From positions 736,001-800,000 of the forward strand of contig OY764159.1 of the NCBI GenBank assembly GCA_963668175.1: a DNA stretch of 64,000 nucleotides, in the 5' to 3' direction. Position numbers and translations under genes: made by a program. Positions 6,937 through 16,218 of the stretch are shown here, in pieces (the first letter of the stretch is position 1; each line of letters begins with the position of its first letter). This DNA comes from Syntrophales bacterium (GTDB lineage: Bacteria; Desulfobacterota; Syntrophia; Syntrophales; PHBD01). The notes under the pieces are model-generated. The model saw nothing but the letters and a program-made list of their open reading frames with translations. It did no database searches and had not been told where the DNA came from.

Positions 6937-8628
6937 TTACCGGACCTTCAGGACCATGAGGGTGATGTCGTCGAACTGGGGTTGCCGGCCTGCGAAATCG
7001 ATCACGGACCCCTGGATGACTGCGAGGAGTTCGCCGGCGTTCATCTCCCGGTGGCTTTGGACAACATGGATAAGACGGTCCAGCCCGAAGGCTTCCCCCG
7101 ATTCGTTGATGGCCTCGTTGACGCCGTCCGTGTAGAGGACGACAATATCCCCCGATGCCAAATAGAGATCCTCTTCGCCGAGATCGATGTCCGGTTTGAC
7201 TCCCAACGCAATGCCTCTGGCCTTCAGGGGAACGGGGTTTTCTTCTCCTCTTTTGAAGAAAAGAGGCGGATTATGGCCGGCATTGATATACCGGAACCTC
7301 CTGTTGGCATCCAGAACGGCGTAGAAGAGTGTTACGAACATGCCGGACGTGGAATCCCGGCATATCAGCGTATTGGCCTGCCTGATGGCCAGGACGGGAT
7401 TCGGAGTGCTCGTCGTGCTGGCCCGGACGATGGTCCTCGAAAGTCCCATGAAGATGGCGGCAGACATGCCTTTGCCCGAAACATCCGCTATAACGACTCC
7501 CCAATGGTCTTCGGCAACGGGGATAAAGTCGTAAAAGTCTCCGCCGACTTCCCGGGCCGGTATATTGTTGGCCGCAATATCGATTCCCTTGATCGAGGGG
7601 GCGGCCGCGGGGAGCAGCCTCTGCTGAAGGCCGCGGGCGATCTCCATTTCCTTCACCAGGCCTTCTTTCTCCGACGTGGTCCTCTCCAATTTTGCCATCT
7701 GGTCTTCGAGATCGGATGCCATGCGGTTGAATGCGGAGGCCAAGTCCTCGAATTCATCCTCGGTGCGGAGTTGCACCCGGTAGTCTATTTCGCCGCGGCC
7801 GATGGCCCGTACGCCGTCGATTAGGGCCATGATCGGGTTGGTGATCATATTGGAAAGGAGATAGGAAATACTGAACACGACGAAGATGAGAATCATGAGA
7901 AAGACGATGAAACTGGTATAGACGTCCTCGAGCCTCTCATTGACATGCTGGTTGATCGTCTTTGTGGCTGTCTGGATCTTTTCGCGGGTTTCAGTGACCG
8001 GGATCGAAAATTCATCGATGTAGGTTGTGGCCGCGATCATATAGGGCGTTCCGGCTACGGGTACGATGGCCATGAATTTGCGGCGAATCTTGCCGTCCAA
8101 TTCCTCCCAGTCGTAGTAGCCGCTTGCCGGGGATCCGTTGAATGTCCGCTCGAAGATCGCCCAGAACCCGGGGAGCTTGTCTTTCCAATGGTGCATGTCG
8201 TAATTGACGAGTTCGGGGTTGGGATGGAATCTCATGATCCCGTTTGTTTCGTACAGGATGGTATAACCCGTCTTGCCCACCGACTGGACGGCGATGGTTT
8301 CGAATTCCTTCTTTTTTCTGAGTGCATCGATGGTGATTCTCGGATGGGCGTTGAGGTAAACCCTGCATTGCAGGGCAACATCGGCCGCCTTCTGGGCGAT
8401 GATCCTCTCGCCCAGCGCTTCCAGGGCCTGGGTGCTGTCGTTGGCCGCGCTGGTGCCGAGGGAACTGCCGCTTTCCAGGGCGTAGCTGCCGATTTTTTTG
8501 ATATCGTTCAGGGCGAAATATCCGAAGATAATCAGTGAAATGATGGGCAGACCGAGAAAGGCGACCATGATCCGCGTTCTGATCCGGATACGCGGTATTT
8601 TAATACGGAAAGGAGATTGTTTTGTCAA
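6937..8628 (-). CDS. membrane-bound PP2C/SpoIIE serine phosphatase with Cache-like sensor and HAMP domain (RsbU-like)
   Basis: Two TM segments, HAMP (DEFEDLASAFNRM), VGGDFYD, IADVSGKG, NAGH, YTDG and DDIT. Confidence 0.92.
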   Translation of the reverse strand: MTKQSPFRIKIPRIRIRTRIMVAFLGLPIISLIIFGYFALNDIKKIGSYALESGSSLGTSAANDSTQALEALGERIIAQKAADVALQCRVYLNAHPRITIDALRKKKEFETIAVQSVGKTGYTILYETNGIMRFHPNPELVNYDMHHWKDKLPGFWAIFERTFNGSPASGYYDWEELDGKIRRKFMAIVPVAGTPYMIAATTYIDEFSIPVTETREKIQTATKTINQHVNERLEDVYTSFIVFLMILIFVVFSISYLLSNMITNPIMALIDGVRAIGRGEIDYRVQLRTEDEFEDLASAFNRMASDLEDQMAKLERTTSEKEGLVKEMEIARGLQQRLLPAAAPSIKGIDIAANNIPAREVGGDFYDFIPVAEDHWGVVIADVSGKGMSAAIFMGLSRTIVRASTTSTPNPVLAIRQANTLICRDSTSGMFVTLFYAVLDANRRFRYINAGHNPPLFFKRGEENPVPLKARGIALGVKPDIDLGEEDLYLASGDIVVLYTDGVNEAINESGEAFGLDRLIHVVQSHREMNAGELLAVIQGSVIDFAGRQPQFDDITLMVLKVR

Positions 8629-8642
8629 CGCCCCACCCTGTG

Positions 8643-9593
8643 TCAGAGATTCAGCGACTGCCAGCGGTCTTCCCGCTCCAGTCTGTAGAAAGTCCGGCGC
8701 CGCTCCGGCGATTCCTTAATGGCGACATAACCATTGACGAGGTATCCCCTCGCGAGATAGTGCATGAAGAGAGAACGGCAGCTGTTCCTGAGAATCTGGG
8801 CCTTCGCGCGGTCCGCCAGCAGGATTTTATCCTGATTGTAAGGTATTTCCACAAAAATCGGCGATGCCTTGAGGTTGAAGACGGCCTTTTTCCCGGCCTT
8901 CTCCAGACCTTGTTCGTCGATGATGATTTCGTTGACCGTGTTGGCCGCCGTCATCTCCGAGGCATCGGATAGGTCAGGAGAAATCCCCCGTTCCATACGG
9001 TCTTTTACGCGTTCGGAATTGATCAACCATTCCACGACGAAACGATCCGTCGATATGGCCCTGTTGAACTCGTCGCTGGTGAAGACCGCGCTGTAATAGT
9101 TGAACCCGATCTCCTTTACGATGGCCCCCATTTTATGGATGTAGATATAGCCGTTCCGGGAGACCATAGGGTCGTATGTCCAACGGATCCGCGAAATCTG
9201 CCTTTCTTTCGCGCAGGCATACAGGGTCTGAACGAGTTCTTCTCCGATATTTTTGTCCCAATACTTGCGGTCGACGCCCATTCTGGCGCCGTACCAGAAG
9301 GGGCCCCGCTTGTCGAAATCGGCAAAGCAGACGAGGAATCCGATGGGATGGTCACCCTCATACCAGGCATCTTCCCGGGCCATGGCGGCCTTTTCTTCCA
9401 CAGAAAAGAGCCCTTCGTCGAAAGCCGTCAGGACAAGTCCGTTGGTAATGTACGCGAGCTCAAAATAGAGCATGGGCGCGTTGACTTCCCGGTAACCTTC
9501 ACGCTTCCAGACGCGCTTCTCAAGTTCCACAACATCGTTGAGAACGGATTCCTTGAGATACTTCTCCACCCTTATCTTAGACTTTGAGGACAT
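8643..9593 (-). CDS. GNAT-superfamily acyltransferase (COG3375-like)
   Basis: MGVD..Y....IG..L acyl-CoA-binding region, WTYDP...RN.....KMGA, NYY and TDRFVVEW pattern. Confidence 0.7.
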   Translation of the reverse strand: MSSKSKIRVEKYLKESVLNDVVELEKRVWKREGYREVNAPMLYFELAYITNGLVLTAFDEGLFSVEEKAAMAREDAWYEGDHPIGFLVCFADFDKRGPFWYGARMGVDRKYWDKNIGEELVQTLYACAKERQISRIRWTYDPMVSRNGYIYIHKMGAIVKEIGFNYYSAVFTSDEFNRAISTDRFVVEWLINSERVKDRMERGISPDLSDASEMTAANTVNEIIIDEQGLEKAGKKAVFNLKASPIFVEIPYNQDKILLADRAKAQILRNSCRSLFMHYLARGYLVNGYVAIKESPERRRTFYRLEREDRWQSLNL

Positions 9594-9605
9594 GCGGCCA
9601 TCCCG

Positions 9606-10052
9606 TTATTGGGTTTGAATGGACGTATAATGTGCCTGCCGAGACACGGAGTGTCGCGCGGGATACATGGTCAAGATAAGGACATTACGCTCTCCGTCCC
9701 GGTGATAGCTGAGCTGATTGGTCAATTTTCTTATGAAAAAGACACCCAGCCCGCCGGTCTTTCGGGCCATCAAATCGGTCGATATATCCGGATCGGGGAG
9801 CGTATGGATGTCAAATGAGACACCTTCGTCGGCGATGACGATTTCAATACCGCCTCCACCGATGGGGGCGCAGATCAGCTCAATGTAACCGGGACGTTGC
9901 GGATAAGCATGGCGAATGATATTCACCAGGGCTTCTTCCACAACCAGTTCTATCTCATTCAACCTCTCCCGATGAAATGCCATGCGACTGGCGCAGAGGG
10001 AGACATGCTCCAGAAATAACCTTAAATTATCCAGGGTGGCGGGTAGTTTCAT
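9606..10052 (-). CDS. anti-sigma factor Ser kinase (RsbW/SpoIIAB-like)
   Basis: EEALVNIIRHAY, DEG..FD and GGLG GHKL motifs. Confidence 0.9.
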   Translation of the reverse strand: MKLPATLDNLRLFLEHVSLCASRMAFHRERLNEIELVVEEALVNIIRHAYPQRPGYIELICAPIGGGGIEIVIADEGVSFDIHTLPDPDISTDLMARKTGGLGVFFIRKLTNQLSYHRDGERNVLILTMYPARHSVSRQAHYTSIQTQ

Positions 10053-10074
10053 TTGGAAGGTTTTATTCTTTCAA

Positions 10075-10419
10075 TCATTCACGGCCCTGCTGTCGGCTGA
10101 CGGCTTCCGTTACGGACGCATAAATCGGAAACAACGTATCAAAGCCGGAAATTTCAAAGACTTCTTTTACCGTGCCCCGTAAAGACGTCAAGGCGATTCC
10201 CCCTTGTCTGCCTTCCAGGTTTTTGGCGGCGGCTAGAATACACTGCAACCCAGCGCTGCTGATATATTCCAAGTCGCTGAAATCGAAGACGAAATAAAGT
10301 TCGTTCTCTGCGATCTTCTCGTCCAGGATCTTCTCCAGATCCGGGGCGCAAACAGCATCCATTCTCCCTTTGATGGAGATGACAATGCTGCTTCCTTCTT
10401 TTCTCAGGTCTATAACCAT
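10075..10419 (-). CDS. STAS-domain anti-sigma factor antagonist (RsbV/SpoIIAA-like)
   Basis: G.MD, D.S.LEYISSAGL (phosphorylatable Ser) and VFEISG. Confidence 0.92.
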   Translation of the reverse strand: MVIDLRKEGSSIVISIKGRMDAVCAPDLEKILDEKIAENELYFVFDFSDLEYISSAGLQCILAAAKNLEGRQGGIALTSLRGTVKEVFEISGFDTLFPIYASVTEAVSRQQGRE

Positions 10420-11447: not shown

Positions 11448-12809
11448 TTATTTATCGACCCTGATCAGCATGGCGTCGCCCTGGGCATGGCCGGAACAGA
11501 TACCGCAGACGCCGTAGCCCCCTCCCCTCCGCCTGAGTTCGTAACCGAGGGTCATAGCGATCCTGGCGCCCGTAGCCCCGATGGGATGGCCGTAGGCGAC
11601 GGCGCCTCCGTTGATGTTGACTTTCTTGTACATGTCTTCCTTGGACATGCCCAGGATCGACCGGCAGCTTACGAGGGTCACGGCGGCAAAGGCTTCGTTG
11701 ATTTCGATGACGTCCATCTGATCGATGGTCATATCGTTTTGGTCGAGAACTTTCTTGATGGACAGGCCCGGAACGGTGGCAATGTCTTTCGTCGGCTGAG
11801 AGACCTCGGCATAGTCTACAATCGTGAAGATCGGTTTTAAACCAAGCTCGTTTGCCTTTTCCCGGCTCATGAGCAGGCAGACGTCGCCGCCGTCGTTGAC
11901 GCCCGGTGCATTGCCCGCGGTGACGCTTCCGGGCTGGCCGGTCACGGTGCTCTTGTGGTTGAACACCGGCGGCAGTTTGGCAAGGCCCTCGAGCGTCGTT
12001 TCCGGCCTGGGGCCTTCGTCCTTGTCCATGACGAACACTTTTTTACCCTGTTTGATTTCAACGGGGAATACTTCATCGTCCAGTTTTCCCGCCGCCATGG
12101 CCTTGACGGCGTTCAACTGGGAGTTGAGCGCCCATTCGTCCTGATCCGCACGGGTAAAGCCGAATTCGTCGGCCACTTCCGAGCCGTGAATGGCCATGTG
12201 CCTGTTATAGAAGGCGTCCCACAACCCGTCGTAGACCATGGCGTCCACAACGCGTCCGTTGGGCAAGCCCATCCGGGCGCCCCACCGCATATCGGGAAGA
12301 ACGAACGGACAGTTGCTCATGCTCTCCTGGCCGCCGGCAATGCAGATTTCCGCCCTGCCGAGCTGGATCGCCTGGAAGGCAAGGTCGATCGTCTTGATTC
12401 CGGAGGAACACACTTTGTTGACGGTAATGCAGGGAACGGATTCGGGAACACCGGCCAAAATGGTCGCCTGGCGTCCCGGGATCTGGCCGCACCCGGCAGG
12501 GACGACTTGTCCCATGTAAATGTAATCGACGTCCGCTCCTTTGACCTTGCCGTTGGTCCTGCGAAGGACTTCCTTGATGGCCAGGGCGCCAAGCTCCATG
12601 GCGGAAAAGTCCTTCAAGGCGCCGCCGGATCGGCCGTAAGGCGTTCTGCAGGCTTCAACGCACACGACTTCTCGGAGTTTTTTATGGGGATTTTTCATTA
12701 TCCGGCCCATCGTGCTAAAATCGGCCTTTCTTTCCCCAAATTTTGCGATCGGAGCGTTGGCGTAAATTTCGGATTTCTTCTTGTCCAGTTTCTGCGGGGC
12801 TTTTTCCAT
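11448..12809 (-). CDS. acetyl-CoA C-acyltransferase (thiolase) with N-terminal extension
   Basis: [23 protein letters not shown] and C-terminal CSG; strong RBS AAGGAGG before 12809. Confidence 0.93.
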
Positions 12810-13151
12810 TCTGTCCTCCTTATATTATATTGGCTGGCATAAAACCTTCAATATGCAAATGTTGAGGCGAATGATGGACATGCTGAAAATAGATTAGATG
12901 ACGCCCTATGTCTTGCATATCCGATTTTCTTTGTCAATCAATTTACGTTTCGCATATTGCAGACCGGAAAACGGCCGGGCCGGGGAAGTCCTGGACGCGA
13001 TTTCTGCCATGCCTGAAAGGCATTCGTGTTTTCAGTTGCGGAAAAAAGGGTCCTTGTGTTAACCCAGTGTCATTATCCACCGTTCAAAATGCAATTCCTG
13101 CAAGGCCGTTGCCGCCGGTATCCGATAAACCTGACGCAAGGAGCGACAAGT

Positions 13152-14357
13152 ATGCCGACCATAACGATTCGGGAATGCCCCAAAGTGTATATCTTAGAGA
13201 CGCATCGATCGAAAACGCCGGAGTCCACCCTGAAATTCGTCGAAGACATGAAAGACGCCCTGGGCATGCTGGATCTCCATGACGCCACGGACGTCGAAAG
13301 GTTGCAGATTCCCGTTTTTCTCTGCAACCGCATCCGCCCCGACCGGTCCGAAACGAGCCATACCGGGAAGGGGGTTTCCGCCATCCAGGCCCGGGTGTCC
13401 CTGACCATGGAATCCATCGAACGCTATTCATCGGAGTATCGCGACGAATATGCCGGGACGCTGGTCAAGGGAGCGTACAACCGCTTACGGGATCAATACA
13501 ACGTTCTCGATCCCCTGTCTCTTATCCTTTCGTCCCGGAGCGATTACGATCATGACAGGGAAATCTTCTGGGTGTGGGGTACGGACCTCGTTGCTTCAGA
13601 AGACATCCTGGTGCCTGCCTGCGCCGTTTATCATCCGTTTCACCTCGAAGATACGTTTCTGATGGAGACCCATACTAACGGCATCGCGGCAGGTAACACC
13701 CTGGAAGAGGCCATCATTCACGGTACGGCCGAGGTCATCGAACGGGATGCCTGGAGTATAGCCCAGTACAACAGAACTTTTGCCGATGCCCTGTCGGTTG
13801 AGGACACGCCGGGTAACGCCTTTATCATCGATATCATTAATCGGTACGAGCACGCGGAAATTGAAATTGTTGCCAAAGATATTACATCCGACATCGGCGT
13901 GCCGGTTGTAGCGGCGTTTTCCCGAGATTTGCGCCATGAAGGAATGATACCGGTCGACGGATTCGGCGCCCATCTCGATCCCCGGGTCGCCGCCGTGAGG
14001 GCGTTGCTGGAGATAGCGACCACACGGGCATTATTTCTGGCGAAATACGGTCTTGAAAGAATGCAGGATTCCCTGCCCCATTATTATCGGGAAGATGATG
14101 AAGACCCCCGCTTCTATGCCTTTCACCAGAAAGGGCTGGGAGAAATCCCTTCCGATTTCACCGGCGATATTGCCGCCGACATCCGTCTCATGATCGCCAA
14201 ACTATGCAGGCAGGGATTGGATAAAGTCGTCGCCGTCGACCTCACCCGCCCTGACATAGGGATTCCCACGGTACGGATGATCGTTCCGGGGATGGAGGCG
14301 ATGTGCTTCGATCGATCACGGAAAGGGGAAAGGCTCATGAATGCCTTGCCGGAGTGA
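13152..14357 (+). CDS. YcaO-family ATP-dependent peptide-backbone-modifying enzyme (methanogen YcaO-like)
   Basis: THR..TPE.TL, GKG, MESIERY, TNGIAAGNTLEEA..HG..EVIERD, G.GAHLDP and VDLTR.DIGIP.VR.IVPG.E; ATG at 13152 after AAGGAG. Confidence 0.88.
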   Translation: MPTITIRECPKVYILETHRSKTPESTLKFVEDMKDALGMLDLHDATDVERLQIPVFLCNRIRPDRSETSHTGKGVSAIQARVSLTMESIERYSSEYRDEYAGTLVKGAYNRLRDQYNVLDPLSLILSSRSDYDHDREIFWVWGTDLVASEDILVPACAVYHPFHLEDTFLMETHTNGIAAGNTLEEAIIHGTAEVIERDAWSIAQYNRTFADALSVEDTPGNAFIIDIINRYEHAEIEIVAKDITSDIGVPVVAAFSRDLRHEGMIPVDGFGAHLDPRVAAVRALLEIATTRALFLAKYGLERMQDSLPHYYREDDEDPRFYAFHQKGLGEIPSDFTGDIAADIRLMIAKLCRQGLDKVVAVDLTRPDIGIPTVRMIVPGMEAMCFDRSRKGERLMNALPE

Positions 14358-14363
14358 GAGACT

Positions 14364-14711
14364 ATGCTTTCCGAAGATGAAATCAGGGAACGGGCCTCAT
14401 ATTGCTGCTGTGTCTTGAAACAGCTGGGTTGGCTTTACGGCAATTCCTCCATTCCCCCTGCGCAGTATGTCGAATATCTGGGCAAGTCCTCGCTGGCGCT
14501 CGCTGAAGACGAATTCCTCATGGGCACGTTGATAGAGGCGGCAAGGAAGGAGAATATGGAGCAAGGTCTGTTTTCCCTCATCAATGTCTATGAAGGGCTT
14601 GTCCTGGCCTTCTGCGAATGCCTGGAGACGGATATGGAGACCATAACGAGTGCCATGCCTCCGGACACCTTTAAACGCCTGGCTGCGGAGATGGGTGTCG
14701 ATCTGGATTGA
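14364..14711 (+). CDS. hypothetical protein with a CCC motif, coupled to ycaO
   Basis: 115-aa ORF 6 nt after the YcaO stop, with a GGAG RBS at the YcaO 3' end; I recognise no family. Confidence 0.7.
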   Translation: MLSEDEIRERASYCCCVLKQLGWLYGNSSIPPAQYVEYLGKSSLALAEDEFLMGTLIEAARKENMEQGLFSLINVYEGLVLAFCECLETDMETITSAMPPDTFKRLAAEMGVDLD

Positions 14712-14792
14712 ACCGCCGACCACCTTCGTTGCCTCATATCATGCCGGGAAAATGACTCACGGGAGAGAAAGATTCATTCCCTGTGATTTTCC

Positions 14793-14821
14793 TTGACATG
14801 CAAAGAGGGATAACCTATAGA
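14793..14821 (+). promoter_or_regulatory. sigma70-type promoter candidate giving a ~335-nt leader before the CoA-transferase operon
   Basis: TTGACA-N17-TATAGA. Confidence 0.5.
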
Positions 14822-15162
14822 TCATTGTACCCTGGGCAGAGGTTTCGTATAAACATGCTCGGGTATTTCAGCGCTTTACAGGGATTAATCCCGCAGACTC
14901 ACCTGAAAAACACACGAAAAGTTGCTTATCGACCTCTTAAACGTATCAGATTAGGAGGTTAGTCATTTCAGATCATGGCAATACAATAACATTGTAACTG
15001 CAGTCAAAACCGGCTTGCATAAGTCGGACGTGATCAACTCAAATACGAAAAATCAGCAATTTATATGAAGGGAGGTGAATGTTCTTCGTTCAGCAGGATA
15101 ATTCATGTCGAAGCTGCATGTTTGCGGGGGTGTGTAATTGACAACGCCGAAAGGAGGGAACA

Positions 15163-16218
15163 ATGCCGAGAATTCGAGGAAAATCCAAGAAAGCTGAAAT
15201 ATTGACCTTAGAAGCAGCAGTAAAGAAATACATGCATAACGGAATAACTTGTGCCTTCAGCGGATTTACCGGTTTCAACAGGAACCCGTTTGCCTTTGCC
15301 TGGGAGACCGTGAGACAGGGCTTCAAAGACCTCCATGTGCTGGATCGTCACGGAAGCCAGTGCACCTGGCTTCTCAACACGGTCGGCGCCATGAAAATAT
15401 ATGAAACCAACTGGATGGGTTGGGGTGAAATGGCCGGGAAGATCGACATCAACCTGGAAAGGAATTATAAAGCAGGCAAAATGATTCTTGAAGACTATTC
15501 GCACGGCGCCATCGCCATGAGGTTCCTCGCCGGCGCCATCGGGGCTCCCTTTATTCCCTACTGCGCTCCATTGGGATCGGACCTCTACAATCCCAAGTAC
15601 GATTCCCTGGGCAGGGCCGGGATGCGAGACGGGAAGAACCCGAGAATCGCGAAAAAGAAATTCATCCAGATGGAAGAACCTTTCTGGGGTGAAGGCGACG
15701 TCGTCCTGCTGCCTGCAGCCAGGCCGGAACTTGCCATCATCCATGTCTCCCAGGTGGGAGACAAAGGAACCGCCCACTGGCGCGGCGTCGGGACGATCGA
15801 TAAGGAGATCTCTTTTGCCTGCGATAAGGTAGTGATTCTTGCCGAAGAAATCATTCCCGAGGCGGAAATGCGGAAACTGCCCGAAACGAATCAGATTCCC
15901 TATTTCGTTGTGGATGCCATCGTGGAATGCCCCTGGGGGGCCTTCCCGAGCTCCGTGCCCTTCTTCTATGACTATGACGCGCCGTTCATGAGGGAGATGG
16001 ACAAGGCGTCGCGCAATCCCGAAGATCTCAAGAAATGGCTCGACGAATGGGTATTCGGGCCGAAGAACTGGGAAGACTTCGTCGTAAAGCTCGGCGCGAA
16101 GAGGTTGCTGGATCTGAGGGCGGACAGCGTCACCGGATACAGCGTGAAGATGATGCGGGGTAAAAAACCGGCTCCCAGGATGAAGATGCCTTTGTCCGTG
16201 GCACGAAGCGGATACTAA
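15163..16218 (+). CDS. family I CoA transferase subunit A (glutaconate CoA-transferase GctA-like)
   Basis: GF...R.P.A, EDYSHG....RF.AGA.G.PF.P, GSDL, IHV...GD.G and AEEI; RBS AAGGAGG. Confidence 0.85.
   Translation: MPRIRGKSKKAEILTLEAAVKKYMHNGITCAFSGFTGFNRNPFAFAWETVRQGFKDLHVLDRHGSQCTWLLNTVGAMKIYETNWMGWGEMAGKIDINLERNYKAGKMILEDYSHGAIAMRFLAGAIGAPFIPYCAPLGSDLYNPKYDSLGRAGMRDGKNPRIAKKKFIQMEEPFWGEGDVVLLPAARPELAIIHVSQVGDKGTAHWRGVGTIDKEISFACDKVVILAEEIIPEAEMRKLPETNQIPYFVVDAIVECPWGAFPSSVPFFYDYDAPFMREMDKASRNPEDLKKWLDEWVFGPKNWEDFVVKLGAKRLLDLRADSVTGYSVKMMRGKKPAPRMKMPLSVARSGY

Follow-up and report, generated by a model that had tools for sequence, protein, structure and literature searches.

What reaction does a stand-alone YcaO carry out in a bacterium that has neither TfuA nor methyl-coenzyme M reductase (MCR), and what is the role of the small protein encoded directly behind it? 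The question is raised by a 64,000-nucleotide stretch of the genome of a Syntrophales bacterium (contig OY764159.1; the whole stretch is referred to here as the window), in which the gene for a 401-amino-acid (aa) YcaO is followed by one for a 115-aa protein, hereafter the small protein. We propose, with roughly even confidence, that the YcaO is a TfuA-independent protein-backbone thioamidase and that the small protein is its lineage-specific companion, acting as a non-catalytic helper rather than as a cysteine relay; both the reaction and its target, like the part played by the small protein, are things that we infer. In the proposed mechanism, the YcaO would bind ATP and Mg and transfer phosphate to the oxygen of a backbone amide in a protein substrate other than McrA, and sulfide or a protein-bound sulfur equivalent would then displace the phosphate to leave a thioamide, without TfuA. 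The small protein, encoded in the slot where archaeal relatives have tfuA, may serve as an adaptor, a chaperone or an aid to sulfur delivery.

According to a recent report, backbone thioamides are known in two proteins only, MCR and, since 2026, uL16 (PMC13063428). Two further papers indicate that the YcaOs of Methanosarcina acetivorans (with TfuA), Methanopyrus kandleri and Methanocaldococcus jannaschii have been reconstituted with ATP and sulfide, those of the latter two thioamidating McrA peptides in vitro (PMC7581889), and that M. kandleri and M. jannaschii are without tfuA (PMC5589413). The kind of enzyme is known; what is new is a bacterial clade that lacks TfuA and McrA and has a dedicated small protein. 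Among open-access papers and preprints we found no paper on this clade.

The YcaO protein and its nearest relatives

An earlier note, made from the letters of the window alone, had described a 401-aa YcaO with intact motifs and no PxP end, and this description was borne out. The homologues are 400–410 aa long and can be aligned from residue 1, so the start at 13152 is correct; this ATG lies in an open reading frame (ORF) of 13026–14357 (+) and is preceded by AAGGAG 8 nt upstream. The protein matches Pfam PF02624 with 267.4 bits (cut-off 25.7) over residues 72–382 and TIGR00702 with 206.1 bits (cut-off 75.65). Its motifs HTGKG (70–74), MESIERY (86–92), TNGIAAGNTLEEA (175–187) and AEVIERDAWS (193–202), which we take to be those of ATP/Mg2+ binding, align with the motifs of M. 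jannaschii MJ1094, and the key residues are invariant in 38/38 aligned homologues. The C-terminus reads ...GERLMNALPE and has no PxPxP, the C-terminal criterion of the azoline-forming YcaOs of thiazole/oxazole-modified microcins (TOMMs).

The best NCBIfam model for the protein was TIGR03266 (‘YcaO-related McrA-glycine thioamidation protein’) at 294.1 bits, against an equivalog cut-off of 365. Six further members of the bacterial clade scored 285–309 bits and four methanogen relatives 465–513, so that all seven bacterial proteins tested fell below the cut-off and all four methanogen proteins above it. The TOMM SagD model TIGR03604 gave 172.4 bits, under its cut-off of 219.25, and the Escherichia coli-type S12-accessory model NF040716, which describes proteins of about 586 aa, gave 23.6 bits against a cut-off of 700 and over residues 175–294 only. 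In the PDB the top relative was MJ1094 (6PE3/6PEU; 195 bits, query residues 13–395), with the M. kandleri YcaO second (6CI7/6CIB; 125 bits); TruD, LynD and MusD matched through the YcaO domain only (88–99 bits), and E. coli YcaO was not among the matches at E <= 0.001. The nearest ESM Atlas cluster was archaeal. Judged by sequence, the nearest characterised relatives are therefore the McrA-thioamidating YcaOs of methanogens, and the protein groups neither with the E. coli-type nor with the azoline YcaOs. The earlier assignment to the methanogen type holds as a resemblance and fails as a membership: the protein is not an equivalog of the McrA enzyme, because 294 bits is less than 365 and the genome has no McrA.

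Partner genes sought in the genome and the order

The source genome is 100% complete and assembled as a single 4.57-Mb contig. It encodes one YcaO and gave no match to TfuA (PF07812; the control was found in M. acetivorans), to the SagC-type cyclodehydratase partner (TIGR03603) or to McrA (PF02249; controls positive). No SagB-type dehydrogenase (TIGR03605) exceeded the cut-off of 78.4 bits, three nitroreductase-like matches remaining below it at 33–55 bits and megabases from the window. One ThiS/MoaD-like gene lies at 2.54 Mb. The search was extended to 121 genomes drawn evenly from the order, all of them kin within that one order, and TfuA was found in 0/121. The absence of an E1-like partner, an azole dehydrogenase and TfuA, previously read from the window, thus extends to the whole genome, and that of TfuA to the sampled order. 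A tfuA gene lies directly 3' of ycaO in 35/45 archaeal loci against 0/110 bacterial loci, a few of the loci in these counts being one contig fetched twice.

The small protein

The small protein carries YCCC at positions 13–16 and CEC at 84–86 and is strongly acidic by sequence count. It has no Pfam or NCBIfam match, and Pfam searched at E <= 10 with 30 family members gave no recurrent family. A word-index homology search returned four close relatives only, and a profile searched exhaustively against 1.84 billion representative proteins recovered only 20 clusters of the family. In 48 archaeal YcaO loci the profile matched nothing, and it picked up no paralogue in the source genome. AlphaFold2, given a 30-sequence alignment, modelled six helices (pLDDT 96, pTM 0.89), a confident fold unlike that of a disordered precursor of a ribosomally made, post-translationally altered peptide (RiPP). 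Foldseek matches of this model in the PDB were all at E > 1; the best VIA-align hit had Z 6.3, and bundles of a generic helical kind, flagellar-chaperone-like ones among them, followed at Z 5–6, which is the noise range for bundles; and the ESM Atlas held no match >= 0.9. From its position and this predicted compact fold, we weakly prefer a helper role for the small protein.

It had been suggested that the cysteine-rich partner replaces TfuA as a sulfur relay. Across the family the triplet site reads YCCC, YCYC, YCYL or FYYC, with the full triplet in the closest relatives only. At least one cysteine is present at positions 14–16, which lie inside predicted helix 4–26, in 29/30 members. No cysteine is invariant in the 30-sequence alignment, the figure for C84 being about 90%, and a single divergent member is free of cysteine. 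A cysteine persulfide relay via the CCC motif is therefore unsupported, since the triplet is not conserved and no cysteine is invariant, and we abandoned this candidate. The invariant residues are Q20, Y35, S42 and L46, with S43–L44 nearly so. One metagenomic protein (P0144, 266 aa) joins the C-terminal half of a clade YcaO to residues 1–46 of the small protein; its YcaO part looks frameshifted midway, and it is probably a read-through caused by sequencing error rather than a natural fusion.

Distribution and phylogeny of the YcaO clade

More than 120 proteins are 60–80% identical to the window YcaO, and those with names are labelled as Syntrophales or Syntrophaceae metagenome-assembled genomes (MAGs); some clade proteins carry the automatic JGI labels ‘methanogenesis marker protein 1’ or ‘thioglycine synthase’. 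Members of the bacterial clade as a whole show 49–80% identity and come from Syntrophales-labelled MAGs. Within the order-wide sample, 45 genomes have a clade YcaO (E <= 1e-100, 49–68% identity), one more has a fragment and nine have distant YcaOs only. When one genome was scanned for each species of prokaryote, 80 loci were retained. The 65 bacterial ones (49–68% identity) are labelled Syntroph-something, delta-proteobacterial or more broadly as Pseudomonadota or Proteobacteria, and the 15 archaeal ones (32–36%) belong to Methanocella, an unclassified archaeon and Nitrososphaeraceae. Archaeal relatives are 32–41% identical overall, and three of the closest genomes encode McrA.

A maximum-likelihood tree of 127 distinct sequences was calculated with IQ-TREE in quick mode (LG+C20+F+G4, SH-aLRT support only), with E. 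coli YcaO and three distant YcaOs of the order as an outgroup on very long branches and without Methanococci, Methanobacteria and Methanopyri. The 82 bacterial rows form one clade (SH-aLRT 100) on a stem of 1.12 changes per site. Both the 35 Halobacteriota-type rows (support 94) and the six Nitrososphaeria rows (99) lie next to this clade and do not enclose it; the branching order of the three groups was not resolved. Horizontal transfer from a methanogenic partner had been thought conceivable. A recent transfer of this kind finds no support and was set aside, because the bacterial clade is monophyletic, has a long stem and lies outside the sampled archaeal rows; an ancient transfer is still conceivable. 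YcaOs linked to the small gene (41 rows) make up all basal branches of the bacterial clade, and a nested clade of 40 rows (support 96), just outside which the window YcaO falls, has lost the small gene.

Two clade paralogues occur together in some genomes (G077, G107 and the MAGs behind L116+L139, L126+L140, L093+L102, L092+L115 and L095+L113), and their contexts differ, being either the small gene and CoA-transferase with sulfur genes, or a metallo-beta-lactamase (MBL)-fold gene with MetW/Rrf2. This points to diversification within the clade, whose members may act on several targets. Genomes of the genus f21/g23 (G074, G041, G059 and others) have no clade YcaO, only a distant YcaO fusion protein of 757–760 aa with 30–34% identity over the YcaO domain. 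The Nitrososphaeraceae loci L160–L165, from ammonia-oxidising archaea, in which MCR is not known to occur, keep the ycaO–tfuA pair, the YcaO of L160 scoring 284 bits and thus under the TIGR03266 cut-off.

Sulfur genes beside the derived copies

Contexts of the 82 distinct bacterial rows were labelled by BLAST with a fixed set of probe proteins: 41 are linked to the small gene, in 22 a sulfur gene lies within 2.6 kb, in 10 there is an MBL-fold gene, and nine show none of these. Among the derived copies, one arrangement is metX–metW–cysK–ycaO–MOSC–nifU–nifS, in which CysK scored above its equivalog cut-off and MOSC, NifU_N and the class-V aminotransferase were assigned by Pfam; another is mnmA–ycaO, with MnmA above its cut-off. 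Other derived neighbours are ThiI-like PP-loop ATPases, a CysE-like hexapeptide transferase, a protein like phosphoadenosine phosphosulfate reductase together with an Rrf2 regulator, and an FdhD fragment. About 570 nt upstream of one derived ycaO lies the gene of a ThiF-family E1-like enzyme (L120:1160-1927 (+); 242 bits), which may hint at a thiocarboxylate sulfur donor of the ThiS/MoaD type in this TfuA-less lineage. These neighbourhoods of sister YcaOs therefore support a sulfur-inserting role for the clade, and together with the nearest relatives they make thioamidation, as the earlier note had supposed, appear the most likely chemistry.

The MBL-fold gene fills the slot of the small protein in 10 of the 82 rows. 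In the f8 loci L040, L042 and L045 the product is a 319-aa MBL-fold protein (a weak Lactamase_B match, no NCBIfam family) encoded 3' of ycaO after a gap of 12–40 nt. By position, this suggests that accessories tend to occupy the slot 3' of ycaO, in archaea tfuA and in bacteria the small protein, a MOSC protein or an MBL-fold protein.

How ycaO and the small gene are linked to each other and to the CoA-transferase operon

Profile searches found the small gene in 36 of the 121 genomes, 35 of which also have a clade YcaO. It lies directly 3' of ycaO in 29 of the 36, and the gap is no more than 17 nt in 31 of 41 distinct pairs (median 12); the coupling read from the window, where the small ORF begins 6 nt past the ycaO stop, is thus a real one. 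In f5/g7 (four genomes) and f7/g9 (two) the two genes have been relocated together, away from the transferase operon.

An orthologue of the window CoA-transferase (>=69% identity) is found within 4 kb 3' of the small gene in 25/36 loci, including all six with ycaO elsewhere, and at least two of the other loci have a contig end just past the small gene. In the linked loci the downstream set is a conserved CoA-transferase/acyl-CoA dehydrogenase operon, parted from the small gene by a spacer of 270–500 nt. The orthologue is present in 46 of the 121 genomes and in 40 of the 45 YcaO-bearing ones; in family f8, ycaO and the transferase are about 15 kb apart on one contig. Five YcaO-bearing genomes have transferase paralogues only (<=37% identity), among them G062 and G117 (98% and 96% complete), which have the ycaO–small pair, and five genomes have the orthologue and no YcaO domain, among them G013 (100% complete, 8 contigs). 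Because all of these genomes are kin within one order, synteny and co-occurrence with the transferase are not independent evidence of function. Loci L061, L067, L073, L076, L077 and L037 have a paralogous pair of CoA-transferase A/B genes in the vicinity of ycaO and the small gene; its identity to the window pair is about 30–36%, and it is often encoded on the other strand.

In the window itself the gene order is as previously described, with thiolase and hbd upstream on the minus strand and CoA-transferase genes downstream (Table 1). A scan for promoters and terminators around ycaO gave consensus matches only, and an Rfam scan of 12000–16000 gave a single match, mir-263, at chance level (20.5 bits, threshold 51.3). 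This match falls on an imperfect hairpin at 14729–14811 (+), just 3' of the small-gene stop, to which no T-run is attached downstream. Further upstream (6937–10419, minus strand) lies a partner-switching module of a SpoIIE-type phosphatase (HAMP/Cache), an RsbW-like HATPase_c_2 kinase and a STAS protein, plus a GNAT-domain protein; the STAS and GNAT genes are syntenic with the locus throughout family f1.

Table 1. Features of the ycaO locus, in window coordinates
Feature	Position	Strand	Remarks
Hbd (3-hydroxybutyryl-CoA dehydrogenase), 287 aa	10508..11371	-	Syntenic in family f1 and two further loci
Thiolase, 453 aa	11448..12809	-	Divergent from ycaO; syntenic in family f1 and two further loci
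Divergent intergenic region, thiolase (-)/ycaO (+)	12810..13151		Sigma-70-like consensus matches on both strands; ycaO Shine-Dalgarno
ycaO, 401 aa	13152..14357	+	Stand-alone YcaO of a Syntrophales-specific clade nearest to methanogen McrA-thioamidating YcaOs
Small gene, 115 aa	14364..14711	+	Acidic, all-helical (predicted) protein of a new lineage-restricted family; conserved companion 3' of ycaO
Spacer, small gene/CoA-transferase operon, 451 nt	14712..15162		Imperfect hairpin at about 14729-14811; no Rfam family at threshold
CoA-transferase subunit A-like protein, 351 aa	15163..16218	+	Syntenic neighbour; 69-89% identity across the order
CoA-transferase subunit B-like protein, 300 aa	16240..17142	+	Syntenic neighbour
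Acyl-CoA dehydrogenase, 385 aa	17231..18388	+	Syntenic neighbour; top NCBIfam model acryloyl-CoA reductase AcrC, below its cut-off

Discussion

The window YcaO is most readily compared with the enzymes of M. jannaschii (MJ1094) and M. kandleri, which are likewise single-domain proteins of about 400 aa that align over nearly their full length, have the same ATP/Mg motifs and no PxPxP, and come from genomes without TfuA. It differs from them in scoring, like the other clade members tested, below the TIGR03266 cut-off, in being only about 35–40% identical to the archaeal relatives and in having no McrA in its genome. Its clade is a separate bacterial group whose stem is long, and no counterpart of the small helical companion dedicated to it was found in 48 archaeal loci. 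With the YcaO–TfuA pairs of M. acetivorans and the Nitrososphaeraceae it shares the YcaO lineage and the habit of keeping a companion gene directly 3' of ycaO, although the downstream gene here encodes an unrelated 115-aa protein that is predicted to be all-helical. The uL16 thioamidase of E. coli is also bacterial and TfuA-less, and is described as acting on a folded cellular protein with a physiological sulfur donor that is unknown (PMC13063428); it belongs to a different lineage and sits on a very long branch of the tree. Finally, the azoline-forming TOMM and cyanobactin YcaOs (SagD, LynD, TruD, MusD) share the YcaO ATP-binding domain, whereas the window YcaO is under the SagD cut-off, has no PxPxP and no fused E1-like domain, and has neither a SagC partner nor a SagB above its cut-off in the genome.

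Several observations weigh against our proposal. An amidine or azoline chemistry is also conceivable, because the TIGR03266 score is below the cut-off and identity to the archaeal proteins is only 32–41%. When 50-aa segments from the McrA genes of three methanogens were used to look for a McrA-like thioglycine loop in all ORFs of the source genome, no match rose above chance (lowest E 0.19). For the small protein, the lack of an invariant cysteine, a known fold and a known family means that no sulfur-handling site is indicated. The pairing is also imperfect in both directions: six sampled f8 genomes and G033, G039, G086 and G113 have the YcaO without a detectable small gene, one 89%-complete genome has the small gene without a YcaO, and in six genomes (five of f14, and G019) the small gene lies away from ycaO and directly upstream of the CoA-transferase A/B orthologues. 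A predicted complex of the two proteins scored 0.00 (‘no answer’), which counts neither for nor against the pairing.

One other explanation for the tight adjacency is that the small protein is not a helper but the substrate of the YcaO, receiving a backbone thioamide or a thiazoline in its cysteine-bearing helix 1 and then acting on or with the CoA-transferase pathway. The arrangement recalls the enzyme–precursor pairs of stand-alone RiPP YcaOs, and the two genes have a common restricted range, 35 of the 36 genomes with the small gene also having a YcaO; family f8 has lost the small-linked type of YcaO and the small gene alike. The retention of a cysteine at positions 14–16 in 29/30 members, and the loop motif of invariant S42 and nearly invariant S43–L44, would suit a modified site. 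However, the model predicts a folded 115-aa helical bundle with these cysteines inside helix 4–26, one family member is cysteine-free, and the small gene persists without an adjacent YcaO in five f14 genomes and G019. To our knowledge, moreover, the protein substrates McrA and uL16 are not encoded beside the YcaO that modifies them, and this also counts against a substrate role, which we consider unlikely overall. In the helper role that we prefer, the small protein might instead recruit the neighbouring CoA-transferase (or the acyl-CoA dehydrogenase or thiolase), which would then be the third thioamidated enzyme after MCR and uL16; the earlier note had suggested an acyl-CoA enzyme as a possible target. 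Such a target would fit the transferase operon that follows the small gene in 25/36 loci, even in all six where ycaO is elsewhere, the orthologue in 40 of 45 YcaO-bearing genomes out of 46 holders among 121, and the distance of about 15 kb on one contig in f8. It is quite unlikely all the same, as five YcaO-bearing genomes, G062 and G117 included, lack the orthologue and offer just paralogues at <=37% identity, a YcaO domain is missing from five genomes that do have the orthologue, G013 included, no feature of the transferase sequence is tied to the YcaO, and within a single order co-occurrence and synteny may reflect shared descent only.

A further possibility is that ycaO and the small gene are adjacent by inherited order only and that the small protein works for the fatty-acid/CoA-transferase cluster, perhaps in regulation or assembly, and not for the YcaO. 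Linkage to the transferase (25/36) is about equal to linkage to ycaO (29/36), and each gene occurs apart from the other, the small gene without an adjacent ycaO in f14 and the YcaO without the small gene in f8. Against this, the short ycaO–small gaps suggest co-translation, while the spacer of 270–500 nt parts the small gene from the transferase; the pair has moved jointly in the four f5/g7 and two f7/g9 genomes, and two genomes keep it without any transferase orthologue. We regard an adjacency due to inherited order only as very unlikely. A thioamidase with a non-catalytic companion remains the explanation that we favour, at the even confidence given at the outset.

The locus offers a third and genetically compact place in which to seek a backbone thioamide, in a clade that is widespread among the syntrophic Syntrophales. 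The sulfur-gene context of the sister copies may inform how TfuA-less YcaOs receive their sulfur, a question that has been raised for E. coli. It is a rather improbable outcome that a two-part, TfuA-free system thioamidates a core enzyme of syntrophic fatty-acid metabolism, either in the adjacent CoA-transferase/acyl-CoA dehydrogenase set or with the small protein as a subunit. If it were true, a novel type of factor for substrate recruitment or sulfur delivery would be at hand in the small protein, and the modification would bring the known protein-backbone thioamides to three, with none before it in bacterial central carbon metabolism.

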